A DNA stretch of 63,800 nt, counting the filler. It is 14 parts of 14 records of this genome, joined end to end, with 100 filler letters (N's around TTAATTAATTAA, not from the genome) between each part and the next. Parts side by side here need not be neighbours in the genome. Positions count along the whole stretch, not along the records: positions 30,385 to 37,259 come from SRR9670534_955; positions 37,360 to 47,660 come from SRR9670534_960; positions 47,761 to 50,493 come from SRR9670534_970; 11 more parts are not named here. One strand, given 5' to 3'. Each line of letters begins with the position of its first letter. The stretch's first letter is position 1. Below are positions 5,005 through 58,355 of the stretch, one piece after another. Both the position numbers and the translations under genes were made by a program. The notes beneath the pieces were generated by a model. That model did no database searches and was not told the origin of the DNA. It worked only from the letters and a program-made list of their open reading frames with translations.

Positions 5005-5578
5005 CTAAAAATTTGTTCTATTCTATAATGCGAATATGCACACGTGCAAAAATAAACATCTTTATGATAAGTACTTGGCCCTAAACAGTTGTGTATGTAT
5101 ACATATAGGTACAAATAATATTATAGTATAATAGGTAATTATACAGTACAATTTTGCATCTAAACCTATAATATGTACAAATATTATACATACAATACAA
5201 TGTTGGCATGTAGGCACACCTACGTATTATACAATACCAGGGCCGGATCTGATGGCCATTTTTNNNNNNNNNNNNNNNNNNNNNNNNNNNNNNNNNNNNN
5301 NNNNNNNTTAATTAATTAANNNNNNNNNNNNNNNNNNNNNNNNNNNNNNNNNNNNNNNNNNNNAATTTAAAATTTAAATTTTAAATATTTTAAACATTTT
5401 CAAAGGTAAGTAGTTAAAAATTCAAATTTGAAATTTTAATTAAAATTTTATTTTAAAATTTAAATTAAAATGTTAATTTGTAATTTAAATTAAAATTTGA
5501 AATTTAAATTTGAACTGCCAGAGATTTTCCAAGGTTTAGGATTATTTGAAAAATTTAAATTATCTTTTTGAATTTAAG

Positions 5579-19441: not shown

Positions 19442-20043
19442 CTACTAAGAAGCAATATATCGAGAACATGTACATATACGGTATATATGTACCGTAGGTA
19501 CATATAATTTGAAAACTGTGATACGTGGTCAGCTGTAATGTTCTCAGTAGGTACATATAATTTAGTACATAGTATGTACTACATACCTGTGTNNNNNNNN
19601 NNNNNNNNNNNNNNNNNNNNNNNNNNNNNNNNNNNNTTAATTAATTAANNNNNNNNNNNNNNNNNNNNNNNNNNNNNNNNNNNNNNNNNNNNAATAAGAA
19701 TAAACAGTAAGTTAAATAGTTAGCATTACTACCCCCAGTACTGTGAATATATTAATAATAATAACATTCAGGTTAATAATACACCACCATTAATAATGGC
19801 AAAGACAAGAATTCACAAATAATAAAGACTTTGGACAACCACCTTCGAAGTATCACTGTTGATCATACCACATGGTATAATGAATGTAATTTTGAGAAAT
19901 TTGCCCCCAGAACTGAGTGGCTAAGAGCGGAAATTCCACTGCAGAAACACCAATATAGGCTAAAAACGCAAGGAGAATTACTTTAACTAGAGTATTAAAC
20001 TAATTAAGTTACATAACTTATTAAGTTACTACAAGTAAATAGC

Positions 20044-22890: not shown

Positions 22891-23333
22891 ATTTAAGCTA
22901 CCAGAAGGTATGTAATCATTCAAAATAAACTTATCAGTTATTAAATTATTACTATACATAACATCGTCAAAAGCAATAGAGAAGTGTTGGTGGTTGTCAA
23001 TCATACTGTGCAAAAAGATACCTGACATGCCAGAGAGATATAAAATGGAATTATTGAGTGTAGATGTATTTTCATTAAGTATAGGTCGTGATTTTACTCT
23101 AGCAGAGACATTAGCAGGGTTATATAACATGTACAGAATTTTGAATACATCATAAAAGGTACATTTTATAGAAAAAGCATCATTATCAAGCAAGGTAGCA
23201 CTCTTGCAGTACTGGGAGAAATGGGTAAAAATTACAATAGTATACATAAAACACAAATAAAATTCAACAATAGAAATACATAACACAGAGTTGCTAATAA
23301 TATTGTTAACTTGAATAGTATCAACAGCCCCAT

Positions 23334-24230
23334 CTAGTTTTCCGACATACTCTCATTGTTACTGGCTAAAGCTTTATTCACAACTTGATTGAACATGGCT
23401 GAAAGGTTTCCAAGATTACCTGAATCCTTGTTTTGTAATGGAGAAGAGGTTTTCCTAGCTGTTGTAGCAATAGGGACTTCTACAATTTTCCAGGTAGAGA
23501 CATTACCTTTGCGCTGCACTACCAAATTTTTGCCAGCATTCTCTGATTTTAGCTTTTCAGCATCTAACTTTTTATATAACTCAGATGCCTGTTTTTTCTG
23601 GCTACTGGTCATAGGAGGCCTGAAGAAAATCTTGTTGTAATTAGCAGATTTTGCAAGAGCTTTAGCAGCATTTTTCATGGACTTTTTTTCTCTTTCAGTT
23701 TTGAATTTTACCAATAGCGCTCTGGTAATAACATTGCCATGCCCATCCTTTTTAGATATGCCTAGTCTTTCAGTAGATACCACACGGCAATCTTTGACAA
23801 CAGATGCCACAACATTTTGCATATAATTGTGATCTACATCTTCTCTAGTTTGCAAATCAAAGGTAGGGTTTGGCTCAGGAACTCCATAGGCAACAAGAAA
23901 TTTTCTATTTCTGACCATTTCCACACTTGTCATATGATCTTTTTGGTCATTGTTAGCTACTTTATCAAGTCCATCTTCAAGTACACATACACGATCACGA
24001 ATTTTACTGAAATCTTGCTTCAGCTTATCAAAATTTTGCTTAAACTCAGTAAAGTTATCCAGCTGCTTTTGTTGGCCTATCACCAATAAATTGACATTTT
24101 TAGCCATAGCTGCAAAATTGACATTGGCAAGGGCATCAAAATTCACTCTGGCAAATTTAGCCTTTATCTCTTCACAATCAGAACACATATCAGTCCCTGA
24201 CTTTTCCAAGTTGTCATGAGATCTCTTCAT
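23334..24230 (-). CDS. LINE ORF1p (coiled coil + RRM-like region)
   Basis: Coiled coil, then RNRKFLVAYGVPE, ERLG and RALLVKF, typical of CR1/L2-type ORF1. Confidence 0.8.
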   Translation of the reverse strand: MKRSHDNLEKSGTDMCSDCEEIKAKFARVNFDALANVNFAAMAKNVNLLVIGQQKQLDNFTEFKQNFDKLKQDFSKIRDRVCVLEDGLDKVANNDQKDHMTSVEMVRNRKFLVAYGVPEPNPTFDLQTREDVDHNYMQNVVASVVKDCRVVSTERLGISKKDGHGNVITRALLVKFKTEREKKSMKNAAKALAKSANYNKIFFRPPMTSSQKKQASELYKKLDAEKLKSENAGKNLVVQRKGNVSTWKIVEVPIATTARKTSSPLQNKDSGNLGNLSAMFNQVVNKALASNNESMSEN

Positions 24231-24854
24231 ACACTCAAGGTAAACGTTAGGTTAAAATTGGAGAAAAGAAAATTATGATAAATCAGGTTTTCAATAGTAG
24301 CAGGTCCAGCGAAGAAAGCAACTCCCCACATGTATCCGTGATATCTACTATGTAGTAGTTGACTACTACATTGATANNNNNNNNNNNNNNNNNNNNNNNN
24401 NNNNNNNNNNNNNNNNNNNNTTAATTAATTAANNNNNNNNNNNNNNNNNNNNNNNNNNNNNNNNNNNNNNNNNNNNTTCTTGACTTTTTTAAAAGTATTT
24501 TGACAATTTTCTCAAATATAGTAAGAGATATTTCTTAATAAATCTAATACTGCCAACTTTTCATTCAATTTTTCAATGCATTTATTATAGCAATCTAAAT
24601 AATTAGAATTACATAGTATATTTTCTTAAAGTCAATTTCAATTATATTGATTATTTATAAAAACTGCATCAATGATGAAAATGAAGTTCTTATAAATCTA
24701 TAAAAGTTAATATAATATTAATTGCATAAATAATGCAAAAACAACTTTTGTTATTATTTTATCAATTATAATACTTGTAAGTATTATTATTAATAATATT
24801 AATCATAAGTATAACTAGTCTAAATAGTGAATATAATGTTAGTAACTACAAGGT

Positions 24855-25163
24855 ATTTATATAATATCATTCATAAGCTATTATAACTAGTATAAGAGTG
24901 AAAAAGATATCACTATTATAAGTACTATACAACTACTAACAATTATCTTATTTTAATGGTAAAATATAAAGTGATACTACATAAAAGCATTCCATATAAA
25001 TATTACTGTATATAATATTTATATGGAATACTGTTATATAGTATCACTTCATATTTTACCATTGAAATAAAATAGTTGTCAGTAGTTGTATAGTACATAT
25101 AATGGTGACATTTTTTTCATTCTCATACTAGTTATAATAACTTATGGATAATATTATATAAAT
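24855..25163. repeat. ~310-bp imperfect palindrome (foldback/MITE-like)
   Basis: Arms of ~150 bp centred near 25008 (ttccatataaatatta...taatatttatatggaa; outer ends atttatataatat...atattatataaat). Confidence 0.85.
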
Positions 25164-26088
25164 TAGCCATATTTTGCAGTAATATACTAAATATAATTAG
25201 CTATATGTATGTGAATTTTTATATAATTACCTATAGATGTTAATTAAATAGAAGTAATTACAATTATTGTATTATATACTATTATACATAAGTTTATATT
25301 TTACTAGCAATATTGGCTGAAATTTAGTACATCATATTTAGAAAGATATATATATGTATGTGTGTAAAGTTTAGTAATTGTAGGCTATACATGTAGTATT
25401 TTACCCCTTTTTTATAGTATTATAATAATATTGTACAGCTTATAAATATGTCATAATATAACATGCAAAATAATACTTTGTTATAAAAATACATAAAACA
25501 TGTTACATATACATAATATCAATAATATATTATCTTATAGTTTATTATAATATAAAAGATATATATATATAACATTGATTACATATTATAATATAGTTTA
25601 TAATATAGGTATATCATAATAATGCAATAATAGTATTACAGATAATGACCATAATAATAAACATTACACAAACTGAATATTGTTAGTAACAATTTGTTAC
25701 AAAAAATCTTATAAGATTCTATATACACTATAGTAATTGACTACTATGGTAATCTTATAGTTTACTATAGTATCATTATACTGTACTATAGTAATCTTGA
25801 GATACTAGTAGTATCATACTACAGTAATCTTAGTATAATTATACTATCTTAATTTATAGATTAATAATACCTTAATACTATTTATTATGACAAATAGTAA
25901 GATAATTATAATATTATTAATATCAAATTTACATAATATTTTTTTACTAAAATATAATTTTAAATTATGTAATAAGTATTAATAATTTGCAAGATATTTG
26001 ATTTATAATGTATTTTTATGGAATATCTCAAGTTATTAATATTTTGCATTCTATAATAGAATTTTATCTACCAACAAATATTAATTAC

Positions 26089-26612
26089 CTGATATAGGCA
26101 AATGTCCAAAGATATTGAAGATAATTACAAAACATTTGATAACCACATGTTAAAAAATTTGCTCTAACCAATAATCTGACCATTTTTTTTACAGAACATT
26201 TCAAAAACTTCTTGGATTTTAAACTTTAGATATTATTTTTGTAAAACAACTTTTTTTTATTTTGTCAAATTCTTACATCATCTTTCTGTTCAGCTGTTGC
26301 ATTTGAAATTCCATTCATTTGATAAAAAAAGTCTTAACTTTTGCCTTAAATTCAAAATTTTTAACAAAAGCCTTCTGAGGATGGTATTTAGAAATTATCT
26401 AAAGTCTAATCTGATTTGCTAATGAACTAATAACTACTTTCTGTTTGCACTTTGATTTTGGCAATTTTTTTTAAACTTCTTTTACTGCCTTTCGCAATGT
26501 TGCTTTAGATTTATAAGAATGAGAGCTAGAAGTAAAAGCTTGACTTAACTCTTAACTACTATATGTTTTAGCTTGCTGCTTCTGTCTTTGTCTCATTTTT
26601 GCCATTCTAGTC
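26089..26612 (-). pseudogene. Decayed DNA-transposon transposase N-terminal exon (possibly Sola2-like, family uncertain)
   Basis: Manual translation: YKSKATLRKAVKEV*KKLPKSKCKQKVVI...VKTFF/YQMNGIS...QKDDV...LQK*YLKFKIQEVFEMFC...IG*SKFFNMW..NVL...DICLYQ|gtaatt. Several stops and frameshifts. Confidence 0.55.
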
Positions 26613-28329
26613 CTAATATAAACTATTGAATATTACTAACTATTATTATTATTATTATTTAATATTAGTTATAATATTTATTAGTTTGTAGTTAAAATAG
26701 CAATTATTATTAATTAATAATATTAGTAAATTAATATGCATATTAATTCTAAAATATAATAAGTTATCATAACTATATTATTATTTTTAATATGATTGTA
26801 CTATTATTAATAATTTCATATGTTAGTACATTTTGTTATTGCTAAATTATTGATAATTTTTATAAATTATCTCTTTATATACAATATATTAATAATAAGA
26901 AATAGCACATGAGTTAGAAACTCATCTTATGGTACCTAAGATCTCCAGTTCAAATCTCTATGTGAGATGCAAAGGGAAAATAAATAAAAAATAGATATTA
27001 GGTATGCAATGCAAAGGAGCAATGGATTTAAATAAACCTTAAGAGATTANNNNNNNNNNNNNNNNNNNNNNNNNNNNNNNNNNNNNNNNNNNNTTAATTA
27101 ATTAANNNNNNNNNNNNNNNNNNNNNNNNNNNNNNNNNNNNNNNNNNNNTCTATCAAAAACAATACAGTTAATAGAGCCTTTTTTAAATAGTATTCTTAC
27201 ATAAATAAAGTTCTTTCTTTTTACCCTTTCCAAAATAAAATAATAATAAAGCTCTAAAAGCTCTAATTGAGTAAATACAGTACCTTAAATTAAGATAATC
27301 TCATTACAAAGATATTTTAAACTTCATTTGAAGTAAACATTCAATAAAATTTTTAAAATGTTAGTTAAGTAAAAGTAGCTAGAAAAGTTTTTTAAAATTA
27401 TAGAAATGTAAACATTCCTTATTATTTTCTAGTAAATCTGGGCCTAAAAAGACCATGCATTCAGTCTATACAGAGATCACTAGCAAGTATGATTTTTAGA
27501 TGTTAATTAGCTTTACCTTCAATTTATTTCAACCTATAATACTTTATATTTATATTATTTAAGTTATAGTAATTTTGTATAATAACTAATAAAATATTAA
27601 TTTGTATATTTGTATTTCTAAATATATATTAAAAAAACATATTAATAACTATCAATTCTATAGAGACTAGTATTAATTAATGTACTAATTAACAACAAAT
27701 AATAAAAATATTATTTAGTTATTATAGAACTTTTTTCAGACATTTCTTTACTAAGCTTAAAATACAGTACTTTATAGCTATATTTATAAAAACGAATATG
27801 CCTAGTTAAAAAAGTACAAATTACAGTAAACATATGTTGTACACACTGCAGTAAATCTATGGCAAAGATAAAGGTATTTCTATAAGAATTTTAAATCTAT
27901 GCTTTAGTACAAAAACAACTTTACCATCAATCTCAAATTAAACTTTACAGTTGCATTTTTTAACTATAACAATATATTTAGTAAGATACTTAAGAGTATC
28001 TTTATTAGCAAAAAAAATTAACTTAATCTATATAAAATATCTATTAATTAATTAGAGTACCTTTTGATCAACAACAATTTGATCTCTTAGTAAATTATAA
28101 TTATTTAAGCCAAAATGTAAAAAAAGTACATTATTGTTATACATATACATACTAATACAATGTTGAAACAAAATAAGTTAGTTTATAAGTTCTATGCTTC
28201 TATTTTAAAAAATGTATACATAAGTTACTAGACCTAAATGAATAAAAAATATGGCAGCTTACAATAAGTCTATTTTAGTATACCTCATGGGAATCAATAA
28301 GCCTCCAAAATTCAACTATAGTAAAGTAA

Positions 28330-29600
28330 ATATAGTTATTTCCATTAGCCTATTATGATATTTCATATTTATGACGTTCTTTTGTAAAGAAGTTATGAAT
28401 GAGCTTGTCCTACTTCGCAGAATAAGTTTATACATTATTCACTTTTACATAAATAAACATCATATATATTCTCATAGACAAAGGGAATCTACCAATATGC
28501 TGCAGTTAACAATAAGTCTTTTTTATAAATTATCTATTTAGATCAGAATTTTTAGTTTTTATGAATAATACTTACATTATTTCTAATTTAGAATTGGTAA
28601 TTTCAGAGTTCTATTTTAGAGTTAAATTGCTCATAGATTATATTTACTAATTTGCCCTCAAATTGTAATAAACACTTTTTTTGGAAGCTTATTTCATCTT
28701 AAAATCATCAAATCAGCTACTATGTTCAGAGCACATTTTAAAGAGCTGATATTATTTTTCTTCTATTATAAAATCTAATAAAATCAAATATATGGTTATA
28801 TAAAGCAGTTTAGATTGCATAATATTATATAAAATGTAATCTTTAATAAGCTTTCAATAAAACATTAAAATGATCATTTTATTTGAAAATTTGAAAATAA
28901 GTTAATTATTTGAATAGTCTTAATATATTGGCTATAAAGCACTTGATAATACAAGAAAAGTCCAAACTAATAAATATGCATAAAATTATGATAAAGGTTA
29001 TTTTTATTATTTGTATAAAAGTAAAAGAAATTTTGTTTTAATATGGTCTATATTTTCATTTTTATAAAAATAACTTGAATTATACTTTATATGCAATTTA
29101 TTAACAAAAATACTAATTATTTCAAAAATATAAGTCTTTATCTCTATGGCAAAAAAGTACATTTTTCTCACAAAAAGAGTATTGCAGAATGTTTTTATGC
29201 ACTTAAATTAAAACAAAAGTTTTTATTAGCTTTAAAATTCAAAAATGTTTAATATGCCCAATTTTGAAATAAAAAAGATATTATTAACGAAATGGACATT
29301 ATTAAAAGTTTAGAATAAGAGATGTATATAAACATTATTATTAATAATATTAATTTTCCATAATATTAAAGAAATATGAAACAATAGTAGTGACATAATC
29401 AACAATTTTTATCATAATATATCCAATAATCCTAGTTTTAGACAAAATCTCTTTTAAGCAGATAAACAAAGTAAAATAGTCATTTCTCTGAACTTGAACA
29501 TTCATATATAGACATAGAGTTAATAGAATATTATAGTTCTTCTTACATTTTTTGATGAAAAATATGCTAAATCATTATTTATCACTTAGGGGTAAAAAGT
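28330..29600 (+). pseudogene. Possible very old, heavily decayed RT-like coding remnant
   Basis: Only faint motif ghosts (ILIDKG, KAF-like, LYLYG) in RT-like order, in sequence less repetitive than neighbouring AT tracts. No open frame. Confidence 0.2.
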
Positions 29601-30384
29601 TATTATATATATTTTTTACAATCTAAAATAAAAATAAGCATATTAATAGAAACATAGATAGTATCTGTAAAGCAAAATTGCTACAATTTATGAGAATTAT
29701 ACCAAAGTGTGAATAACTTGTTTATTATGGTCATTATTTAAATTTTACGTAGTGCTAAGTTTTAAACTTTCTTATTGAATATGAGTAATGCCATATTTTA
29801 CAAGTAGCTTTAAGAATTTGTTGAAAAATTTTTACTTATTGTTACAATTTTTAAATTGATAATAATAAACAGTATTTTTAATGTAGAATATTAATTCAAA
29901 TATAATAGTAACAATTTAGTCATTTATTAACAATGTTTTTTACTAACAATAATATTAAATAAACATTTATATTATCTAAATATATAATAACAAACTTCTT
30001 AATAAAAACATTTTGTTATTATTAATAATAACAACAACATAAACCTTAAATGTTAATAATATAATTGCACAAATATTATACATTTAATAAATATATTATT
30101 TATATTGCAAAGTTATTTTATATTAATAATGTCTATCTGTAACTATGTCCTTGCCTTACTAGTTTCCATCCTCCCAGAAAATTTTCACCTTTTAGGCTTG
30201 CTAGCAATTACAACATTCATTTTCATGTGTTGCTATATAATGTAAAAGATAGAGAATTTTCTGGCCTCTCGAATAACATATTACNNNNNNNNNNNNNNNN
30301 NNNNNNNNNNNNNNNNNNNNNNNNNNNNTTAATTAATTAANNNNNNNNNNNNNNNNNNNNNNNNNNNNNNNNNNNNNNNNNNNN

Positions 30385-36888: not shown

Positions 36889-38255
36889 CTACGTATGGTC
36901 ATATGTATACTAGTAGGAATATTATGGTCAAGGCACAATTATAACACACATGTTACACAAGGTGATACCTAGGCGGTTTGGGTATCGCCTTGGTCTCACA
37001 AAATATTGCCACTGTCATTCTGACAGAAGCCAATCAACGACCATTTTGATTGTGCTTTGATGTTTACGTAAGAATGTTAGGTTGACAGTACTGATATGGT
37101 TCTTTCAATAATTCTTTGCATTTATTATACAATTCAACGTTGTTGCAAAACGTAAAAAGGAGTTGAAAACTGCAGTTTACAGTTACCATGGTCCATGGTT
37201 TTACATTTATTAAACTACACTTCCTTGAAAATATGTTTATTATTATTAATAATAATAACNNNNNNNNNNNNNNNNNNNNNNNNNNNNNNNNNNNNNNNNN
37301 NNNTTAATTAATTAANNNNNNNNNNNNNNNNNNNNNNNNNNNNNNNNNNNNNNNNNNNNGGAAGGCCTTGTCAGGCCTTCCTGATTAAGCTTAATCTTTA
37401 ATTGATAATAATGCTTATACTATTATTAATTATATATTTAATTATAATAATGATAGCTTGATAAATAAAAATCCAGCTTGAAGCTAAGCTTACTAAAACT
37501 TTGTTCAATAAAGATTATTATTAATAAACTTTGCAATCAAATGAAATTGAATGTAATCAATTTGTTAAAAAACAGTAGTTAAAAATTATAACGTCTCCGA
37601 TTACACATTCATATAATACAAAGTCTTACAGTCTTGCATTCCACATTCATATATACTTTTATGAATCTCTCTCATTAACGTGTTAAAACTTTTATTATGA
37701 GACATTTACTGTTGGAACAAAAACTCTCATAATTAGAAAAACTTTTCAAGAAAAACTATCACAACTTCAAATGCCTTTATCGTAAATAATAGTAATTGTA
37801 TTAAATACTTATAATACATTATTTATGAACATTATGTTATAAATTGATATGAAAATAGAACCTATAAAGATGCTACTTAAATAAACATTAGATGCAATCA
37901 GAAAGAACAGTCTAATAATATACTTTAACAGTAACTATATCCATATTTGAACATATTTTCCATCCAATCAAGATCAAGTAATTAAACAATGAAGATATAT
38001 GCGAAGCATTACAACAGTTGTTGTATTCGTTCATGAACAGCGTTCTTCACCGTGCCTTTTCCTCGTTCCTAATAAAAAAATTTACTTATATACAAAGGAC
38101 TGATTTCAAATATTAGCTATAATATGCGATTACTCCTTTCTGACGCGAATGAGTTGAATCTTCAGGAATATTCCCAAATTCAAGTTTTTTCTTAGCATTA
38201 CACAATGTTGTCACCTACAATAAAAGGCTTATCTTGTATTATCATTTGGTGTATA

Positions 38256-41200
38256 TCACATATGTCTATATACCTTATCATGCTTAGACCACCTGGAAGA
38301 TTTCTTCCATTTCGCGTTCTTGACCGGTAAGCATACAACTGTTTTGCCATCTTTATGGAATAAATCCATTGATCTTACTCCAGCACTTAAGTAAGCAAAA
38401 GTAAAATCATTGATGGAAACACAATATTCTCTGAGGTAAGAGCACATCAGCATATTTGTAAGCAATCGGTCAGCACGATTTTTCACGTAAGAAGAAAGAA
38501 TACCAAAGACAGGAAAAGTTGTCAAACCCTTCTCAACAATTTCGGGACTTTCAGTGCCTGAGATTATATCACACATTTCATCTAAGGTAATTCCCTCAAT
38601 ACCACTATACACATCGAGATTTGCAGCAGAAACGCTTTTGACTATTTCCCTGGCAATAGCAGTTACATCTTGGCTATCCATCTTCGATATACGTTTACAA
38701 TTATCGCATATACTGACAGAATCACTCTTGCACAATTCACTGTCGAAAGACTCTCTGAAGTATTCAACTTGGAGAGCCTTTCTACAGTCTATTGTGTTCT
38801 CACAATATAAGATTAAACGATGGAGGTTTTGAGTGTTCTGCTTCTTGTTATCCCGAGAACTAAAGCCATATCGACCGGAATTGTTATTTATCATCAGATT
38901 GAGTACCTTCACATCAGAAGGTGAAAAGAAGAGAATACAACTTGCATACTGTCTGTCATGACCAGCGCGTCCCGATTCTTGATAATAGCCTTCCACACTC
39001 TTTGGAAGGCTAAAGTGCATTACGAAGCAAACAGTGGCCTTATCTATCCCCATCCCAAAGGCCACTGTCGTGATCATTACTTTAATAATGTCTTGTTGCC
39101 ATTCCATCTGTATTTCACTCCTTTCCTCACTTGATAAACCGGCATGATACTCTCTACAGTTTATACCATGTCCATCCAAAAACTCACACAGATCAGTACA
39201 CTCTTGTCTAATTTAAAGTAGAAGAAAAAACCCTTAAAACTATATGTTCTACAAACAAAATAAAGCTGATTAACTAACCTGCTTAGGCAGTAGATGATAC
39301 CACTCTGATTGTAATAATTCTTGTTAATTATATCCGCCACTACTTGCATACTTTTCCTTCCTTCTTTTTTACGAACTTCGTAATAAAGATTTGTGCACGT
39401 AAAAGATTGGATGAAAATTTTTCCGTTTTGTATTTTTAACTGATTCATAATATCGGCCCTCACTCATGAAGTTGCTGTTGCTGTGAGGGCCAATATAGGT
39501 ATTTTTGGAAATTCTGTTCTCAATGTGGCCAAATTAGTATACTGTTTTCGAAAATCATAGCCCCATTGTGATATGCAATGGGCCTCGTCTATCACGAATC
39601 TCTCGATCAAATTTCTACCATACAATGGCTTTATTACACAGTTCAAAATACTCCCGCAAAATAACTAAATAAAAAAATTACATATTGAACAATATAATAA
39701 AAATGATAGATAGAAAACCTTTTCTAGGGTCAAAAAAAGTACTTTATATGGTGGATGTTCATCTTTTAGCTTTTCAACGATGTCAATTTCATTGTAACCA
39801 TATTGATCTACACCAGCCAGATATGCAACGGAAATCTAAGAACGTTTTATTAAATAAAAAAATGGAAAATTATATTACATATCGGAAATAGAAACAGAAA
39901 TATTACATGTAGCTATTATTGAACACACCAGCCAGATGTGCAACAGAAATCTAAGAATGTTTTATTAAATAAAAAAACAGAAAAATATATTACATATTGG
40001 AAATAGAAACGGAAATATTACATATAACTATTATTGAACACACATATAAGAGCTAATCAAAAATATCATTGTATTTATACTAGATGATAACCTAGGTAAT
40101 ATAATAATATTGATACCCCTAATTGCGAAAACTTCATTACTTGGTCCTCAATTAAGGAAAGCAAAGGCATTATGCATATAGTAATTCCTTCCTGTATAAT
40201 TGCTGGGAGTTGGTAACAAAAACTCTTGCCCCCTCCCATGGGCATGAGTACGAGACAATCATACCCACATAAAGCGGCATTTACTGCCTGTAATTGATTG
40301 GTCCTGAATGTCGAAAATCCGAACACATCTTTCATAGTAGATGATATTTTTTCAGTGAAATTGTAAATACGGCCTTCAAATTCACCGGTTACCCCAGCAT
40401 TTTCAATGTCCTCAGTAAAATGCCCTATAGAAAGCATTTATTACTAAAAAAAGTTGCAACATTAGCTATAACAACAAACCTAAATTTTTTCCCGTCTGTA
40501 TAGGATAAAAAACACCATCATCCCTATCCAATAAAGGCACATACAAAGTCCTATCAGAATCACTACTTTCCTTTGGTAGACCCACATTGTGACAAAACTC
40601 AGAAGAAGAAATACCTTTAACATCTTCAACAACACTTTTCACCCTCGAATGTGAAACAACTGGAAAATGAGATGTTATCTTATCAGATTTAGTCTCTACT
40701 GTACGTCCAAGCAACAATTCTCTCAGTTTACCTTCATCTAATTCATCACCATCGAAAAAATAATCATTTTTCGTTTGTTTATCAGGCCTGGTAGATGAAA
40801 CTATTTCTGAACTTTGCATAATAGCCACATCCTTAGCAGTACACAAAGATAAATCAACTAAATTAAGCAATTGTTAAAGTAAACATTTATTAAGTTAAGA
40901 TCGTAAACATTTGGAGTTTTGAAACTTTCAAAAAACTAAACTAACCATTATAACCATCATAAGATGCCTTTCCAAGACTTTCCGATTGAATTCTCGACTT
41001 ATCTTTTGACATATTATTTACCTCTTCATCTATTGAACCTTTCAAAAGATAAATATAGACATATAATTATTATTATTATTTACAAATAGTAAATTTCAAA
41101 GAAATGATTTGATTTACTTGATTTATCTGCAAGACTAACACTTTCATCGCAAGCATTTCCAGAATTGCTATTATCATTATCTTCTCGATTATAAATAGGT

Positions 41201-41622
41201 GAGAAAGATCCTGAATCTTCAAAATTATCCATGGTACTCTCACATGCCGAAATATCTTTTCCATCAATAACTATGCCAGATTTCACAAAGATAGATTTCA
41301 ACTCATTACGACTTTCAATTGGAAGACAGGGCAAAATGCATGATGCATTATCCGATACAATCTTAAAAACTTTTGATTGAACTTTATCAGAACTTTCTTT
41401 TGCAAGACAAGATGTCAACACGGAAACATCCTCAATAGCTGCCGCACTAGTTGTTCTTTTCCTGGAAGACTTCTTTTCTTTCGACAAACCTTCTCCAGAT
41501 ATACCAAACATATTCTTATGTGTTGTCACAGGTTGAAAAGTGAACTTCTTCTTGGAATTTCCAACCCCAATCCTATTCTTTGCAGATTTAACTTTTTTAT
41601 CCAAAATACTTGGTTTCAACAT
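38256..41622 (-). pseudogene. BLM-type RecQ helicase (helicase core + RQC, no HRDC seen), disrupted
   Basis: [54 protein letters not shown] (TGA at 39464-39466), SGIIYCLSR, AFGMGIDK, SLPKSVEGYYQESGRAG, RQC YCEN...CR...CDNC. Frameshift near 39770. Confidence 0.85.
39810..40042. repeat. Tandem duplication of ~115 bp (2 copies) over a RecQ intron/exon junction
   Basis: acaccagccagat...gaaatctaagaa...gaaatagaaac...attattgaac occurs at ~39810 and ~39925. Confidence 0.9.
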
Positions 41623-41915
41623 TGTAAACTGACTGAAAATTCCAAATCTTTTCGAGATAATAGTCAAACAAAATGACAACTATAAGATTAAACACAATAA
41701 CTGTTAAATATTAAATTATATAATTTTCATTATAAAAAAACACTAAAAAGAAAACTATAACATCTTATTACTATAACCTATCTAACATTAGCAACAAAAT
41801 TTATATAAGAAAGAAGGTAAATAAATTTCCTATTATATGACACATTTACGTATATGACACATTTACGTATTACTATCACAAACTATCACAAACTTTTATC
41901 AAATACGAATAAGAA

Positions 41916-44459
41916 TTATTTCTCTGTGGAATTTCTGAGATGAAAATGAACATTGAAAACAGAATCAGTTATAGACGGAGAACCACTAAATGGTAGTAAA
42001 CACACTATATGAGCTTTAAGTTCTTCGTCTTCAACAGATTGCAATAATTCATCTGCAGCTTTGCTTAATTCTCCCTCATCATCTAATATGTAACAGTACT
42101 TACAAGTATTATAATATAATATAATAATATTTTACTTATAAAATTACTTATAAAAATATACAATCTCATAAATTGTATAATAAATCAAACCTGAAAACAG
42201 ATTATCATTTAGATTTTCTTCAACCTCAACATTTGATATTCTGCTATCATTATCTCTATCATTATTTCTCAATCTCAACTTTTCTGCAATATAGTTGCTA
42301 TTAAATAAAAGTGTCTATATTTATATCATGTAATAAAACTACAATATCAAATATAGTGTAATAAAAGTATAGTATTATAGAATATATAATATTATAAAAG
42401 TACACTATTATAGATATATAAATATACCTGCATTACGATTCCTTTTAGATGGTGGTTCTCCATCTAACATTCCAACCCTTTTTGAATTAACAGGAACTAA
42501 ATGTTCAGATTTTCGAATAGGTGGTTTAATCACACCTAAATATTATAACATCCTATATATGTAATCAACCAATATGTTACAAAGAATAACAATCACCAAC
42601 TCTTATTATCCTTCTTGTTATTAGTTGACCTTCTAATATGCAATTTTACTTTCTTCTTCTCATCATCAATTTCAGGTGCATACACAACATCATCATTTCG
42701 TAAAGTACCAGCGTCTGTTTCAACACTTGCATTATCAAAGAATTTATCTTCACTCTGTATTCCAGAATCTCTACATTCTAATCTAGATCCAGAAGTACCA
42801 CTGAGGTCAGATACTCTATCATTAGATGACGTTTCACTGATACTATTTAATGATGTTTTTGTAAACACATTTGAAAATCTTCCACCTTCCTGAACATTTG
42901 GTAAATGTTGCATATTATAAGTTCCAGGAAAACACAGACCAAAGTATTGACCATGTCCTAATTGACCATTTGGCAATTGTGTACTGCCTAACTGCCCAGA
43001 TCCTAGATATGTAAGAAGATATCAAAGATATTTAAATCATTAAAATTTTGACTTATTAACTATACTTATAATAATATAATTAATAGGTAAATAAAGTCAA
43101 AACCATATATAAAACCACCATAACCCATCAGAACAGCTTGAAATTGACTTTGAACATGTGGAGGCATTGAATTGCTACTACAAGTTGCAGATGAAGAATT
43201 ATTGTTAACCACATTAGAATTAACTTCTTAACAAACATTAACATGTTGTTGACCAGCACTTTTTCCTTCTATAAAAATAATTAATATAAATTATGCATTA
43301 ATAAAATTTACTTGCACACAAAACCTGAGTGTTCATCAGCCATTGTTGCAATTATAGTCCTTTGCATGTACGGACTTTCATCTATATAATGATCTACAAC
43401 TTTAGGGTCATTCCACCTTCCAAGAACCATAAGCTATCTTTGCAAACAACCCATAGCCGCTGCATAAGTTGCTGAAGATCTACGAAAACAATGACCAGTA
43501 TACTTTTCTGGTTCAGAAAGTTCCAAAAATATAGCCATTTTTCTAGGATAATAGCTCATACCCTTTTCCCAGTATTTTCTGTACCAAATGCAGCTATCTT
43601 ACTGTTGAAATTCTTGAAAAATTTACCACTTCTATTCTTAGTTCTTTTACAATATTGCACAAGTAGATGTAAACAATCAAATTTCTCTCGAAAATGATTA
43701 AAACGAAACTTAAAAGGGATGCTAAATCTTTTGGGCATGGCACATCGTTTTGATGTTTTAACCATTATTTCAATAAACCCTTCACTATTTATATCCATGC
43801 AATCCCATGTTAGCTTCCATAAGTCATCACAATGCATGGTACAAAAGAAAGCAATAAGCACTGCCAAACGCATAGAAAGTGTTTTGGCCTCCTGTGAACT
43901 TTTTATCAAATAATAAAATATTTGATTAACAGTAAATATTTTGGACTGCTTAGAATTATAGCCATTCTTAAATGATTTTAATACGTATTGCAAATCAGCT
44001 AAACCTTTAAAATTTAATCTTAGCTGTCTGAAACCAGGAGCAAGGTGGAACATACGTTTTACAAATGAATATTGCTTTATAAGAGTCGACCAAGTATACT
44101 TTTCTGCCAGCAATTCGATATAGCCTATAAGTCATTCTTCATAATCTTCATCTACATCACAAGAAAACCAGAAGGGCAAAAAATGTGTTTTGGTACATAT
44201 ATAATCCTTTAAAGTGTCTGATTGAACACCTGCAAGTTTTATGTGCAAGGACTGGATTTCTATTTTACAACTACTATTTGTAATGCTTACAATACCTGAT
44301 TTTTCTCTTTTTATCTACATTATAAGGATCAATACCCAATGTTTTGAAAGCAGATGGATCACCAAGATTTACTGTAATTGGACTTTCTGCAAATCCAGGC
44401 AAAGGTTGACTACATCCACTAGCATTGTTCACACTTCTGCGATTTCTCCCACCAGGCAT
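41916..44459 (-). pseudogene. Tyrosine recombinase YR1 (Crypton-like) with long spliced low-complexity C-tail, disrupted
   Basis: SAM-like LIGYIELLAEKYTWSTL; box I FFCTM(H<R)CDDLWKLTW; KTSK; PEKYTGHCFRRSSATYAA...LGRWNDPKVVDHYI (HxxR, W, nucleophile Y). Stops at 44132-44134 and 43434-43436; frameshift at ~43560. Tail ends FSGSPSITDSVFNVHFH. Confidence 0.85.
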
Positions 44460-44679
44460 ACTTACAAAGCAATATTCTAAAATTATTAACTAAAATATAT
44501 CCTATAAAATTTTAATAACCAATCATGAGATATTTAAACATTACACAATGTAAACTATTAGTACCAAAAAAAATCGAAACACATATTTGTTTTTTTCAAT
44601 ATCTAAAATCAAAAAATTCAAATAACCCTACTAACAACAAATTTGCATTATGTAAGATTTCATAACAGAACTTGAATAT

Positions 44680-46027
44680 TCATGCCAAACTTGGTATACT
44701 TCTGTTGCTGTAAATCGTAGGATTAACCAAGTTTAATATCTACAAACATATCAATTATAATTTAATAAAAGAACGAAAGAATAGTTAACTATATACAAAC
44801 TTTGCATTGCAAACGTACTTCAGCAACATGTTTTCCAATGTCCATTAAATCAGACTTTGTTACATGCATACGACCTATTTTCTTTGTTTCATTATCCCAT
44901 TTTCTTAATAAATATCTGCAACGAACATCACAAATAGACAGATACCTCGTGATGATTGTAATACAAAAAACTGGTGGTAATCCACATATCATATATCTGT
45001 TAGGAATTTCTATAATTCTAACATCTAATGTTCTACCATATCTCATCGAAATTTTCACAGAGTTACCATTGCCATATTTAACATCACCAAAGTGAAGCTT
45101 ATAAAAAGCCTTCAAACTATATAATATATACATATTTTCAAAGACAGTATTATCAAATGTTTAAAAACAATGGACAGATGTCTATCATGTTTGTACGAAA
45201 AAGAGAGCATAATAGTATTAATAATTACAATACAACCTGAATGATGTATAGCAGCACAATAATGCAATTAGCTTTTGCACTGCTGATTTGTCCTCATAAT
45301 CCCTATTGAGAAAGCATACCATGTCTCCAATAGTAAAGCATGGAAGTATTTTTGAATAACCTGATAGCACATACTTTTTCTTCAATTTATCCAAAAAACC
45401 AGTTTCATGTGAAGTATGGCTTTGTACCATCTTCTTTGAAAGCACAATGTCTTCAACAGCTTTAAAAACAACTGGAAGAAGCTTTTTACCCAAAACATCA
45501 GAAACTATGGCCATGTATGACTTGATGTTTGATTGAACAGAGAACCCTTTAAAGGATTTAACATGAAGTAAAAAAGATTGTATTGATTCTCGATACAAAT
45601 CTCCATAACCTAAATAGAAATAGCTATTATATGATGTCATAATAATATTATACAAACCAATGCAACGAGTAAAGCATCTATCACCATAATCAACTACAAT
45701 ATTAAGATTTATGTTGAATATTAAAAATAAAAATTTTTATAAATAATAAGTAAAACCTTTTTCAATTTCAAAATGACCATACATAGCATCACTATCCATA
45801 AGCTCTCTCAAACAAGGACATTTCAAGAAATCGACATGTTCACCATCATAACCAACATTCAAAACGTGATTTCTAATAGTCATAAAACTGAACCAGACCA
45901 CAGAAGGAGGAACTCCAATTTCCAACAATTTTTGAAAGTACAACAATGTTTTACGAACAATATCAAGATCGATATCCATAGTATCTAGAAATTCCATATA
46001 ATCATCCAGACTCTCTTGAGTATTCAT
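44680..46027 (-). CDS. Tyrosine-recombinase-fold protein YR2, catalytically incomplete (5 exons)
   Basis: Spliced: KLIALLCCYTSF-S-LKAFYKLHFGDV...IEIP...IITRYL...RYLLRKW...KHVAE|ILNLVNPTIYSNRSIPSLA*. Aligns with YR1 but has no HxxR or nucleophile Y. Confidence 0.65.
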
Positions 46028-46583
46028 CGCGTGTGTTGTTAAGAGTAAAATAAAGAAATACTTCGAATGAACTATGATAGGATATCTATATATACAAACT
46101 TGTCTACTTGTAAGTATAACAAGTTTACAAATTCAATACAATTGTAAAGACTTACAATACACCATAAATAGACCTTGTTATCCTAACAAATCCTTGTTTT
46201 AAGACGAGCACGATCAGAAAGATAACAATTGGAAACTTGAATTTTACTTGCAGCAGATATTAGAATGCAAACACTTACAATCGGAAACCTTAATCTTCCT
46301 GCAAATATAAGAAGTATGATATAATATTGCAGTTTAAATTCCTTTTAATTGAAATGATAACTTCCTCAGCTTCTACAACCTTCACTTTACCTTAATATAA
46401 TTTTATATAAATATTCATATAGCACATATTTTAAAAATTGAAAATCCTATTTCGAATAAAGAACAGAAACCATATAAATAATTATTTATTTAAACAAGAA
46501 AATCCTATTAACACTTAAGAACAATATTGATTTAAATGTTATGTAATAAACAGATATGATTACACAATACTATTGATAAATAT

Positions 46584-47506
46584 TTAATCAATATCAAATA
46601 TTCTTCCATTTATTTCTCTTCTACAAGAATAAATGCTGGAAATATTGAACAAATTGGCAAAAGGAAGAAAACATTTCTGAAAAAAGTTATAAATAGAAAC
46701 CATTCAATATGATTATTAAGTACAGAAAATCAATATTTATTAACCTAAGCAACAACATATGCAAAAGCGCCTATTTCTTCAATTTCCATATCCTCTTTAT
46801 ACAATTTTTTCTTATTGTTACATTGTTTCAAGAACTGTCCAATAGGACGTTCAGTATGTCTTCTATAATCATCAAAAATGATAGAACAGTTTACTGGTAA
46901 CAAGTCTCCATATTCCATATACTTTGGAATAGTAAAGCTCTTGTCTGCATTAACAGAAATCAGTGTATGGAAACCTCCATAGTAAACCTGGACATTTTTC
47001 CATTGAAGTTCTTTCAACTCCTTTTTACTAAAATACTTTTATAATGATTATATAACGTTTCATGTACTAAAATAATTATACACAAACTAGTGATATACAA
47101 ATTACCTTAATAAACCATAGAATACTAACAATATAATCACGCATATCCAAAGATACTTTCCATAAGCATATAAGCTCAAAAATTTCATCAGAATTCTTCT
47201 CTGTAATGGCAAATGTACTTTTCGAAAGCAACCATTGTCCAGATGATCAATCAATATCTTCAATCTCCAATCTCCAGCAATATTTGGGCACAAACAGCGT
47301 AATGAAGGGTAATAAGCAAAAATATCAAAGACATGAACAAACATTTCTTTAATTTCATGATTTGTAAAAGCTCCATGCAAAGTTAACATGAAATTAATGA
47401 CTTTGTGCTGAGAACTCAAATCCGGTGGCTGCTTTAAGTAAAATTCCATAAACTTATTCTTCTTTTGTAAAAATCGATAATTAACAAATACTGGAGAAAT
47501 GGCCAT
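46584..47506 (-). CDS. Tyrosine-recombinase-fold protein YR3, catalytically incomplete (3 exons; TAG at end of exon 2)
   Basis: Spliced: VIILLVFYGLL-S-KKELKELQWKNVQ...SFTIP...IFDDYRR...GQFLKQCN...AYVVA*|KCFLPFANLFNISSI. Confidence 0.65.
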
Positions 47507-47794
47507 TAGAAAATTTAATCATCTATAACAAAAAGTTTATATTGCTATATTCAATTTAATGGACTACAAAATATTAATATGAAAATAAATGCTCTTATTT
47601 GTACATATTATTCAAAATCCAAAAACAATATATATATATAAACATCCTATGAAACCTAGGNNNNNNNNNNNNNNNNNNNNNNNNNNNNNNNNNNNNNNNN
47701 NNNNTTAATTAATTAANNNNNNNNNNNNNNNNNNNNNNNNNNNNNNNNNNNNNNNNNNNNTAGGATACGGATAAGATTTTCCCTCTCTAACTAC

Positions 47795-54411: not shown

Positions 54412-54994
54412 CTAAGAATAAGTATGTAGTAACATATGTACAAAGTACATACCTATGTAATATTATATTACAATGTACATATATAATATTATTTATACAT
54501 ACATACATACTATGTACATATATGTAGTAATGATTGCAAAATACATACAACACTAGGTAATCACAGGCACTTATGTATGTAATATCATGTAAAATATAAT
54601 GAAAAATAAGTGCATTATTATTTTTTCTCTTAATTAATGTTATTTTTAATTAGTAGTTGTTATTTAAATTATTTTTTAGTCATTTATGAAAAAAATAAAA
54701 ATTTGTTATCTATTAATGAAAGTTAATAAAAAGTATCCATCTACCATATTTCCTTTAATAATGACACTATGTTATTATTATTTCACTCACCAANNNNNNN
54801 NNNNNNNNNNNNNNNNNNNNNNNNNNNNNNNNNNNNNTTAATTAATTAANNNNNNNNNNNNNNNNNNNNNNNNNNNNNNNNNNNNNNNNNNNNTTTTTTG
54901 AGCAAAATCAATGTTTTTTTTTGCACTATGTAGAACAATTAAACGTTGATCAGCTGCAATTATTCCAAATAAATATTCACCATCTTATTAAATA

Positions 54995-55314
54995 GGAGTA
55001 CAAATTTAACGTTATCATTATTATTATCAATAATAATAAAGTACTCTACATTGGGGGTCCCAACCTTATAATGGAATGGAAATTTAATGCTAAGTAAGCA
55101 GTTTCTACCTCATAGTGTAGTACAAATTTAAGTTATTAAATAGTAGTACTATTTAACTTTAAATGTGAACTACAATGTAGTTACTACATTATCACTGATA
55201 TGGCAGGTGGAGAGTACTTACTTAGCATTATTAATTAATAATAAATTTCTATTCCATTACAAGGTGGGGACCCCCAAGGTAGAATACTTTAATAATAAAG
55301 TTAAATTGTACTCC
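54995..55314. mobile_element. MITE with long imperfect TIRs and TA flanks (Tc1/mariner-like target)
   Basis: TA|GGAGTACAAATTTAAC...GTTAAATTGTACTCC|TA. Internal mirrored blocks ttgggggtcccaacctt / aaggtggggacccccaa and aatgctaagtaag / cttacttagcatt. Confidence 0.75.
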
Positions 55315-56543
55315 TATTAGTAGTATATTCATAAAATTTTAATCTTGAATTCTGTAATTTTAAGTTATTAATAACTTATTAATTTGCAGTTCAGTGTACT
55401 TGTAAATACTTAGTTATTAATTAATAATAAGTAATTATTAATGCATGCGCATGCTCTATTAGTGCATAAGCTGCGGCTTATTCAAATCACATATGACTAT
55501 AGTCATATGTATTACATCAAAAATGGTGATTCACCATAAAAATAATAATATTGTATTCATATATATATGCTATAAGTAAATGCTATAGCATTAGTAAAGC
55601 AATTATTATTATTAATGTTTATAGTATACTTATATTGTTAGTGTATTATTAATTAATACTATGTGAATGCTATGCTTTGACTGTAACATTGTGGCAATTC
55701 CACCATCACATACCATTAGGGTAATACTATTACCATACATGACATACATTACATTTGCTATTGTCACAGGACCAAAATTTGGTAATTGTCACAAGTTCTT
55801 TAGATATTGCATGATTCTGTGATGTTGTGGCCATGAAGGCTAATTCTGTATTATACTTCCACAGCAATATAATTAGCATTTTTTATTCAATCTTTTCACA
55901 CAATCACAGTATTTATTATTCATTATTTTCACACAATCATAGAAATAAACAAAGATTTTGGCTTCCCTTAAACAAAATATTAATTGTTATATTTATAGTA
56001 TAAGAGCAAAAAATTGTAAAGTAAGCCTTCTGAGAAACATTGATTTTTTTTATTAATTAATAATAATGTATAGCTTCCCATCCTATTGCTGCAGCATGTT
56101 ATTAATAACATGATGTTATATTATTAATACATTACTCTATCTGATTAATTGACATTGACTCCAAAACAAATAGTTATTTGTTATGGTGATAAGCAGATGG
56201 TATTGCAGGGATTTGAAGCTGGTAGCTAAGAATATTGGATAATTAATAAGAGCATTTTGTATTGAAAGAAGATATTGATCTTTAGTCCATAAATGTAATG
56301 AAAACTGCTAAATGTTGTATTTCTTTTATGCTGTAGCAATATATAAAATTTACTACATTATAGCTATTATTATTATTATTGTTATCAATAATTGTAGCCT
56401 GTTACATTATATTGTTATTATTTTAATACAATTATTAATATAATTAAAATAGCACTGCTATTATAACAGGAATATAACTATTATATTATAACATACTGTA
56501 TTAGTAGTATACAGTGTGCTATATTACTATTATTTTATTAAAG

Positions 56544-57821
56544 ATGAAGATTACCAATTTTCTCTTGAAGTTTTCACTATTTACAATTTTAGTAGCAACA
56601 ACATTTATCTTTCTTTTTGCTATTATTAAAAATACAATTGTAAAAATAACAAATTTCAATGAATTAAAAAATCCAAAACTGTTTCTGATGGATTCTAACA
56701 AAAGCTTTGACATTTGGCCCAATCATAGAAACTTGACAATTTCCCCCTCCTTGATGGAAGGGTTTGGCAAAAAAAAGCATGTATTTTTCTTAAAAATTCA
56801 CAAAGCAGGAAGTACCACAGCCCAAAGAATATTTTTTAGATTTGCTGACAACAACAATCTGATCCAACAAATTAGCTCAAAAGATCCAGATCCAAATAAA
56901 CTCACAAAACTAAAATTAAAATTTCAAAGTAAATGGATATTAATTAATACATCTTTAGTCAAGCTAGATATGTATGCACATCATGTAATTTTCAATGAAC
57001 CAGAGCTTAGAAAAGTCTTACCAGATGATACCATATTTATTGCTCTTATAAGAAATCCAGTTACTCATCTTCAGAGTTGGTACCAAGTCAAGCATGGTTA
57101 TGCAGAACCAAAGAAAATTCAAAAGAATATAGAGAACAATTTAATAAAACATCAAGATGAATTAAAAAACAATATGATATTTGAATTTGGTACTTTACCA
57201 TTTGGTGTCAATCATACTATAGAAAGTGCTCTTGATTATCTGAACAAAACTTTTGATTTGGTGATGCTTTTGGAAAGATTTGATGATTCTCTAATTTTAC
57301 TTAAAAATATCCTCAATTGGGATTTGGATGATTTGTTATACATTCCTGTAAATATGTATCAAGTTCAGCCAAGAAAGGTTGATGCTAATTTTGAGCAGTT
57401 TGTAAGAAAATTTAACAAGAATGATATCATGCTTTATGAGTATTTTGAGAAAGAATTTGAGAGAAAGTTAGAATTCATCAAAGATAAAGAGACATTTTAC
57501 AAAGAAGTTAGAATGTTAAAAGATCTTAATCAATTTTGGAAAAATTACTGCTTAAAAGAAGTTAAAAGAAGTAGTTTTGACAATCAAAGAACAAGAGGTA
57601 TAGTACCAGTCCTAAAACTTTCTGTAAAAGATGAAGCTAAAACCAACCTAACATGCAACCAATTAACCAGATTTGATGTGGAATATTTTAATGATTATTT
57701 AAGACCAAAATCTATCTCTTTGTATTGTGATAAGGTAAAAGAAATGGGAGTAAATTGTGATAGAGATGCTTTCTTAAAAGCTGGAGATGAGAAATCAAAG
57801 CATAAAATTCTTGTTACATAA
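56544..57821 (+). CDS. Galactose-3-O-sulfotransferase family protein (type II Golgi membrane), single exon
   Basis: N-terminal TM; 5'-PSB FLKIHKAGSTT; 3'-PB ALIRNPVTHLQS; FDLVMLLERFDDSLILLKNILNW; NKNDIMLYEYF. Confidence 0.88.
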   Translation: MKITNFLLKFSLFTILVATTFIFLFAIIKNTIVKITNFNELKNPKLFLMDSNKSFDIWPNHRNLTISPSLMEGFGKKKHVFFLKIHKAGSTTAQRIFFRFADNNNLIQQISSKDPDPNKLTKLKLKFQSKWILINTSLVKLDMYAHHVIFNEPELRKVLPDDTIFIALIRNPVTHLQSWYQVKHGYAEPKKIQKNIENNLIKHQDELKNNMIFEFGTLPFGVNHTIESALDYLNKTFDLVMLLERFDDSLILLKNILNWDLDDLLYIPVNMYQVQPRKVDANFEQFVRKFNKNDIMLYEYFEKEFERKLEFIKDKETFYKEVRMLKDLNQFWKNYCLKEVKRSSFDNQRTRGIVPVLKLSVKDEAKTNLTCNQLTRFDVEYFNDYLRPKSISLYCDKVKEMGVNCDRDAFLKAGDEKSKHKILVT

Positions 57822-57914
57822 ATGAAACTGCTCTATAACTTGAAAAAAACATACTAACTAATGACAGTTTTTGAAATATACAAAAAAAGTCAAAGTTCAA
57901 AATTAGTTAAAAAT

Positions 57915-57994
57915 ATAATTCATATTTTCAAAATTTAAATATTAATTAATAATATATTGTTAATTAATATTTAAATTTTAAAAATATGAATTAT
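57915..57994. repeat. ~80-bp AT-rich near-perfect palindrome downstream of the sulfotransferase
   Basis: tataattcatatttt-caaaatttaaatattaatta...taattaatatttaaatttt-aaaaatatgaattata. Confidence 0.75.
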
Positions 57995-58355
57995 ATCAAT
58001 GTTATTGTTATATTTGTGGTATTTTTATGCTATTTTGATTTCAAATAAGACTTTGGTAATTTTAAAAATATCATGGCTAATTAGACTTCAATATAAGATA
58101 GTTATAATAAAGACTGATATAATACATAATTAAATTTCTTAATTATTAATTTATATTATTAAAATTTTAAATTTTATATATATATACTGATTTATTTTTT
58201 TGTCAATAATGTATATATATATAGGCAATTCTATGCATTGCATACATACAAGTTANNNNNNNNNNNNNNNNNNNNNNNNNNNNNNNNNNNNNNNNNNNNT
58301 TAATTAATTAANNNNNNNNNNNNNNNNNNNNNNNNNNNNNNNNNNNNNNNNNNNN

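Follow-up and report, generated by a model that had tools for sequence, protein, structure and literature searches.

Described animal Cryptons are minimal: each carries one recombinase gene, and what is said of their mechanism still draws on analogy. We analysed a stretch of animal DNA of 63,800 nucleotides (the window, positions 1-63800), one record of which carries three very different Crypton-like tyrosine recombinase (YR) genes in a row, followed by a divergent and broken gene for a BLM-type RecQ helicase. These genes are called here YR3, YR2, YR1 and RecQ. Our preferred, though still tentative, reading is that this locus is what is left of a compound Crypton-type tyrosine-recombinase DNA element in an animal genome, either a decayed copy, the only one to survive, or a fragment.

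Bacterial RIT elements are free of introns, and all three of their recombinases keep the catalytic residues. In the fungal Starships, a DUF3435 "Captain" recombinase occupies one end, and the elements extend over tens to hundreds of kb. As for animal Cryptons, the sections of Kojima and Jurka (2011; PMC3212892) dealing with them describe elements that encode one recombinase only, with neither a C-terminal domain nor terminal repeats, and the paper nowhere uses the word "helicase". The sections on domestication describe Crypton-derived genes that have lost the catalytic tetrad (PMC3212892). A RecQ helicase is a documented accessory gene of the DNA transposons KolobokH, Kolobok-1_CCri and Academ, and KolobokH is reported from fungi only in the corresponding passages of the two sources (PMC9587614, PMC3627910). 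A full-text literature search returned no paper with a tyrosine-recombinase element together with RecQ, nor one with a eukaryotic recombinase trio. In this respect, the statement of the original prediction that the combination is undescribed agrees with our finding of no Crypton-RecQ unit in the literature searched, though a Repbase or Dfam entry may exist.

The four genes lie head to tail on the minus strand, in the order YR3 > YR2 > YR1 > RecQ, within ~9.4 kb (Table 1). The co-oriented, intron-bearing array that had been predicted is thus present. Gaps of ~160-290 bp separate YR3 from YR2, YR2 from YR1 and YR1 from the first downstream open reading frame (ORF). All of the modelled introns (8/8) have GT-AG borders; seven measure 54-120 nt and the first RecQ intron 281 nt. 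Few lesions are found in each of the four genes. Pfam searches of 27 ORFs from both strands of the record detected no reverse transcriptase, RNase H, DDE or other mobile-element domain, and no viral-type domain beyond the recombinases and the helicase.

Table 1. Position and structure of the features described in the text, in window coordinates.
Feature	Position	Strand	Structure and remarks
Separate whole record, 10,301 bp	37360..47660		bounded on both sides by N44-TTAATTAATTAA-N44 spacers
YR3	46745..47506	minus	exon 1 47506-47106, exon 2 47027-46748, stop 46747-46745
YR2	44680..46027	minus	exons 46027-45757, 45693-45237, 45116-44819, 44739-44683; TGA 44682-44680
YR1, Crypton-like tyrosine recombinase	43308..44459	minus	exon 1 44459-44291; coding resumes after the intron
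Long ORFs without Pfam match	40466..43021	minus	43021-42596, 42131-41919, 41679-41083, 40873-40469
BLM-type RecQ helicase core	38256..40437	minus	exons 40437-40117, 39835-39719, 39664-39279, 39207-38259
115-nt tandem duplication, 2.1 copies, 90% alike	39801..40043		within the first RecQ intron
STT3B oligosaccharyltransferase exons	3181-5017	minus	host rate control, 74-78% identity to many animal phyla

The gene content sets the locus apart from the systems described above. Animal Cryptons, as presented in the relevant sections of PMC3212892, have one recombinase gene per element and no helicase, whereas three divergent recombinase-family genes and a RecQ stand together on this record. As in KolobokH, Kolobok-1_CCri and Academ, a RecQ-family helicase adjoins recombinase or transposase genes. 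However, the transposases of KolobokH and Academ are, according to the passages describing them, of the DDD/E type, and Pfam detected no such enzyme here on either strand. Compared with the helicases of such RecQ-carrying DDE transposons, the present one is of BLM type, bears introns and lies beside tyrosine recombinases.

YR1 is the most canonical of the three recombinases. Its gene has a 61-nt GT-AG intron (44290-44230) and ends with a TAA codon at 43310-43308. The deduced protein reads ...YTGHCFRRSSAT...GRW...HYIDES, and its box YTGHCFRR...GRW...HY provides the HxxR, W and Y motifs. The position of the first catalytic arginine (Arg-I) is occupied by His (CAT, 43834-43832). Of the full R-K-HxxR-W-Y set attributed to YR1 in the original prediction, HxxR, W and Y could therefore be retained, but not Arg-I. 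With respect to the R-H-R-Y tetrad, YR2 and YR3 both show Ser at Arg-I, and recognisable catalytic motifs were found in YR1 only, in contrast with the RIT elements, where each recombinase is catalytically complete. The YR1 frame is interrupted by two in-frame stops (TGA, 44134-44132; TAG, 43436-43434) and by a frameshift between 43598 and 43559.

Among 1.84 billion representatives, the 191-aa ORF of YR1 (44131-43559) matched 20 proteins with E <= 0.001. These matches are weak, the best having an E value of 1.9e-8 and none falling below 1e-10. Of the 10 matches scanned, eight hit Pfam Phage_integrase (E <= 0.01), and for five of these the score exceeded the curated cut-off. The named relatives are an uncharacterised beetle protein and an orthonectid "Tyr recombinase domain-containing protein". 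A family profile was built from 19 of the 20 database matches, and the two parts of YR1 score 135 and 58.6 bits against it. One match, P0128 ("titin"), was rejected as a false positive; it is an FN3/subtilase protein and was kept outside the profile by the length filter. Like CryptonA and CryptonI, YR1 consists of an N-terminal SAM-like part and a catalytic domain, with no reverse transcriptase nearby. It departs from Cryptons in that neither YR1 nor its relatives match Pfam DUF3504. Indeed, no match to DUF3504 or DUF3435 was obtained with the YR ORFs or with the YR1 relatives scanned. The likeness to the fungal Starship/Enterprise elements is that a tyrosine recombinase is thought to move a larger, cargo-bearing unit; the lack of any DUF3435 match in the YR ORFs and YR1 relatives distinguishes the locus from them.

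A metagenome scan with the YTG[HQ]CFRR box gave 42 loci related to YR1, of which nine have lengths of 4.7-20 kb. All 42 are single-recombinase loci, mostly on contigs of 1-3 kb. As with animal Cryptons, the relatives of YR1 are solo recombinase loci, in animals and in metagenomes, and introns occur in the relatives too. In twelve of the metagenome loci (L002, L003, L016, L019, L021, L024, L027, L028, L031, L033, L035 and L038) the recombinase frame breaks at a common point, following a conserved Lys-Val and ~10 residues before Arg-I. This break is probably a conserved short intron, at a position differing from that of the intron shared by YR2 and YR3 (see below).

YR2 and YR3 are much more remote. 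When the three recombinases were compared directly, pairwise and by single ORFs, the scores were near noise, and a signal was obtained only with the profile and spliced models. Single-ORF matches of YR2 and YR3 to the family profile are weak but strictly colinear. The YR3 ORFs align with profile columns 115-171 and 172-262 (second ORF: hhalign probability 84%, E 8e-6) and the three YR2 ORFs with columns 59-124, 120-171 and 176-270, the GT-AG introns sitting exactly at the joints between ORFs. Once spliced, YR3 scores 30.4 bits and YR2 29.4 bits against the profile. These values were reached by 0 of the 501 shuffled or reversed controls made from each model, the maxima of which were 11.4 (YR3) and 5.0 (YR2). 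Among the 57 window ORFs of at least 100 aa, those of YR2 and YR3 occupy ranks 2, 3, 4 and 6 after YR1. Judged by these sequence comparisons, YR2 and YR3 are true members of the YR1 recombinase family. A language-model search placed YR2 exon 2 near SAM-like integrase, QRICH1 and ZMYM/DUF3504 clusters with scores of 0.89-0.92, which we take as a lead only; with YR3 exon 1 it gave nothing usable (best score 0.81).

Over the profile columns, the three recombinases are 15-18% identical in pairs (18/122, 23/129 and 20/114). At this low identity they are ancient paralogues rather than recent tandem copies. The intron of YR3 (47105-47028, 78 nt, GT-AG) is in phase 2 and interrupts the Arg-I codon, which reads AGT (Ser) after splicing. 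The three GT-AG introns of YR2 measure 63, 120 and 79 nt, and the second of them is also in phase 2 within the Arg-I codon, again giving AGT. Thus, YR2 and YR3 have in common an intron of the same phase in the same codon (AG/T), and YR1 has none there. By this shared position, YR2 and YR3 are paralogues that arose by duplication at the DNA level.

The YR2 model contains 361 stop-free codons and ends with a TGA codon just where the HxxR box would start. YR3 contains 227 stop-free codons, and its frame stops ~10 residues before the point, at the start of HxxR, where that of YR2 ends. In DNA of ~30% G+C, the stop rate of random codons is estimated at ~8%, so frames of this length point to selection keeping them open until recently, and we argue that the truncated forms of YR2 and YR3 were maintained by selection. 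From the Ser at Arg-I and the lack of a recognisable catalytic half, both proteins are probably non-catalytic. The hetero-oligomeric recombinase put forward in the original prediction is accordingly not borne out as a catalytic trio. By eye, a "YSCRR"-like box and "VSNC"-like tails can be seen downstream of YR3, to ~46184, and a "LNLVNPTIY" remnant together with a W...Y stretch in another frame at the C-terminal side of YR2; neither has statistical support.

These features raise the question of whether YR2 and YR3, and at one time perhaps YR1 as well, belong to the host: domesticated Crypton-derived genes that lost catalysis, lying beside a lineage-specific BLM paralogue, part of the cluster having recently become pseudogenes. 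The DUF3504 genes KCTD1, ZMYM2-4, QRICH1 and WOC, in the portion of PMC3212892 that treats them, offer the model, and YR2 and YR3 resemble them in being recombinase-derived, intron-bearing and open, with an incomplete tetrad. Loss of the tetrad is what that portion describes for domesticated genes, and the language-model lead to QRICH1 and ZMYM-like clusters and the host-like composition of the locus point the same way. We nevertheless regard this explanation as distinctly unlikely. Domesticated genes are usually conserved across species, but no other animal yielded a relative of YR2, of YR3 or of this RecQ, and YR2 and YR3 have no Pfam DUF3504 match. Moreover, they lie beside a near-catalytic YR1, which by keeping HxxR, W and Y resembles a recently active transposase rather than a domesticated gene, and both YR1 and RecQ are broken.

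The arrangement itself bears on whether the four genes belong together. The genes could also be no single element, with three unrelated Crypton-family lineages inserted nearby at different times beside a decaying BLM paralogue and oriented alike by chance. We consider this possible but on the unlikely side. The solo state of all 42 YR1 relatives agrees with it, as do the mere 15-18% identity of the recombinases, the absence from YR1 of the Arg-I-codon intron common to YR2 and YR3, and the fact that nothing marks common ends. However, four genes in the same orientation have a 1 in 8 chance, spacers of ~160-290 bp are too small for the flanks of separate elements, and the intron position common to YR2 and YR3 argues that these two were not independent arrivals. 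The small number of lesions per gene also speaks against separate insertions. For these reasons (common orientation, short spacers, few lesions in each gene and DNA-level duplication of YR2 and YR3), and because a transposase-type YR1 adjoins a helicase of the family carried by DDE transposons, we favour a compound element over a chance cluster.

In the ORFs of the helicase gene, Pfam recognised DEAD, Helicase_C, RecQ_Zn_bind and RQC domains. Among solved structures, the best relative is human BLM (163.6 bits), followed by RECQ1 (124.7 bits), RECQ5 (108.8 bits), bacterial RecQ and WRN. In a collection of 5.8 billion proteins, almost all named matches are animal BLMs. The domains and the lead of BLM over RECQ1 confirm the BLM-like character that had been proposed. 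Homologue alignment and reading of the DNA give GT-AG introns of 281, 54 and 71 nt in the core. Since the introns have been kept, the gene would have been copied as genomic DNA. HRDC (PF00570), carried by most of the listed BLM matches, was not found in the 318-aa RecQ ORF or in a downstream ORF; it could lie beyond the end of the record or be degraded. The long ORFs upstream of the core (Table 1) are probably poorly conserved N-terminal exons of the same gene. A perfect 17-nt tandem repeat (2.2 copies, 41834-41870) occupies non-coding DNA just upstream of the ORF at 41679-41083 in this putative N-terminal region. The 115-nt duplication in the first intron contains a further copy of the splice acceptor, together with 27 nt from the start of the exon that follows.

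RecQ has diverged strongly. In the 300 residues that follow motif IV, its identity to each of the 14 animal BLMs compared is within 35-41%, while animal BLMs of different phyla, sponge included, are 43-60% identical to one another (a range that omits one same-genus amphioxus pair, 97% identical). A maximum-likelihood tree of 43 rows gives it an end branch of 2.61 changes per column, as compared to a median of 0.31 and to 1.38 for the next longest, and places it inside no supported group. It also differs at 38 of the 183 near-invariant columns, defined as conserved in at least 90% of 27 BLMs. Several catalytic positions are altered, with Thr>Met in Walker A (ACG>ATG, position 40239), His>Tyr in QWGHDFR (position 39559) and, in motif VI, Arg>His (38960) with a neighbouring Gly>Arg (38954). 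The reading frame is interrupted by one in-frame stop, a TGA at 39466-39464 in place of a BLM Arg, and has 0 frameshifts in 591 codons.

One may ask if this is simply the BLM gene of the host, its stops being assembly errors, with Crypton insertions upstream. BLM-type domain order, introns and a single in-frame stop in 591 codons would agree with this, yet we judge it exceedingly improbable. Walker A and motif VI are among the 38 near-invariant positions that differ, the end branch is eight times the median, and HRDC was not found. In addition, other host ORFs of the window show no breaks, and STT3B has a normal level of conservation. In line with the captured helicase of the original prediction, RecQ is therefore an extra, fast-evolving BLM-type paralogue and not the ordinary host BLM orthologue.

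Neutral decay to the observed divergence would be expected to leave ~7 stops and many indels in 1.8 kb, as compared to the one stop and 0 frameshifts present. On this estimate, the divergence of RecQ would have arisen mostly under selection, during its functional period, and its inactivation would be recent. Among the 38 departures from near-invariant residues, 23 can be explained by a single base change. Fifteen of these 23 are readable as G:C>A:T (three of them, Leu>Phe, also allow a transversion), one as A:T>G:C and seven as transversions. Five of the G:C>A:T changes lie in a CpG within the codon (ACG>ATG, CGA>TGA, CGC>TGC twice and CGT>CAT), and the Arg-I>His change of YR1 is of the same kind. 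The C>T/G>A decay noted at the outset is thus real in RecQ as an excess of G:C>A:T, but the further claim that YR1 and RecQ were silenced as one unit is inseparable from the CpG background. Indeed, the observed/expected ratio of CpG is 0.56 in this record and ranges from 0.04 to 0.75 in the other 13. The lesion spectrum fits a CpG-methylating, AT-rich genome in general. Separately, three records (window 24477-30284 and 54894-58255) have a G+C content of 0.20-0.25 and CpG ratios of 0.04-0.18. With other records reaching 0.75, CpG depletion is strongly mosaic in this genome.

A viral source has also to be considered. Nudiviruses encode several tyrosine recombinases, and a compact one-strand array of recombinases with a helicase resembles viral gene blocks, so that the locus might be an endogenised large DNA virus or virus-like element bringing its own integrases and helicase. 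In IMG/VR viral contigs, 0 relatives of the YR1 box and 0 of RecQ were found. Every gene has spliceosomal-type GT-AG introns, the composition is host-like, and neither strand showed another viral-type domain. A virus-like origin, one of the options of the original prediction, is very improbable on these grounds. The locus can also be set beside the bacterial RIT elements. Both have three tyrosine recombinase genes side by side and in one orientation, from subfamilies distant from one another; in contrast to RIT, introns are present here and two of the three recombinases are without Arg-I and a recognisable catalytic half.

Several results weigh against a compound element. First, RecQ, a YR2/YR3-like gene or a second recombinase was present in 0 of the 42 YR1-related loci, 33 of which are shorter than 4.7 kb, so the co-occurrence elsewhere of recombinases and RecQ, which the original prediction had made a point to look for, did not materialise. 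Second, the protein collection contained no close relative of RecQ in either length band, the best full-length match being ~40% identical. Third, no second copy, as similar DNA or protein, was found in the other 13 records (~52 kb). Fourth, no terminal direct or inverted repeats and no other ends were found within the 10.3-kb record; terminal repeats are likewise absent from animal Cryptons as the relevant sections of PMC3212892 depict them. The evidence on mobility is thus a single copy on one record, without termini. Fifth, the G+C content at third codon positions (0.26-0.37) and the CpG depletion match those of host genes and of the other records, so that composition gives no mark of a distinct unit. 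Finally, no statistically recognisable HxxR/W/Y half was detected in YR2 or YR3, which would suit domesticated host genes no less than accessory subunits.

Weighing both sides, we still infer that the four genes formed one unit and that this unit was once mobile, and the roles given to its genes below are meant in the same sense. In such a compound element, YR1 would be the one canonical catalytic recombinase. It would cut the unit out as a circle and put it back by way of a Holliday-junction intermediate, following the proposal made for Cryptons. YR2 and YR3, two old and very divergent recombinase-derived paralogues that probably no longer cut DNA, may serve as DNA-binding or architectural subunits. 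The BLM-type RecQ may have been taken long ago from the host genome as DNA and then evolved fast as an accessory gene; the helicase would drive branch migration, or process the junction or the circular intermediate.

A bolder form of this model, unlikely as it stands, would make the locus the representative of an undescribed compound family of animal Crypton-type elements. Such a family would combine one catalytic recombinase, two non-catalytic recombinase-derived subunits (with the Ser at Arg-I fixed by the shared intron) and its own fast-evolving BLM-like helicase to deal with the intermediate, be it a Holliday junction or a circle. Bacterial elements with several recombinases would then have a eukaryotic counterpart, and a tyrosine recombinase would for the first time be paired with a RecQ in a transposon. 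More generally, a Crypton with additional recombinase-derived subunits and a BLM-type helicase of its own would show that tyrosine-recombinase transposons recruit RecQ helicases, as the DDE transposons KolobokH and Academ do, and would offer a natural system for the role of a Holliday-junction helicase in recombinase-driven transposition. It would also be a possible intermediate between active Crypton recombinases and catalytically dead domesticated genes such as KCTD1, ZMYM and QRICH1. If the locus is instead a chance cluster or a host locus, it is an unusual but ordinary pseudogene neighbourhood.

The window consists of 14 separate records of 2.1-11 kb joined by spacers (44 N, TTAATTAATTAA and 44 N). 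Feature ends that coincide with a spacer are therefore record ends only. Positions 37360 and 47660, the coordinates under which the original prediction lists the candidate element, are record ends of this type. The first 22 nt of this record (37360-37381) form a perfect hairpin with an 8-bp stem, GGAAGGCC-TTGTCA-GGCCTTCC, which may be artefactual, from assembly or adaptor, or else a true palindrome.

The other records contain ordinary animal genes with long unbroken reading frames. The base-level quality of the assembly looks adequate, and since long host ORFs elsewhere are unbroken, the stops in the YR1/RecQ record do not reflect general assembly noise. The STT3B exon found no near-identical match in the protein collection. 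This result, together with its normal identity to other phyla (Table 1), indicates that the host is a metazoan with a normal evolutionary rate and that the collection lacks its proteome. An Rfam search of the whole window gave 0 matches. A run of ORFs of 122-377 aa on the minus strand (window 19693-24376) resembles, by eye, a decayed non-LTR (LINE-type) retrotransposon.

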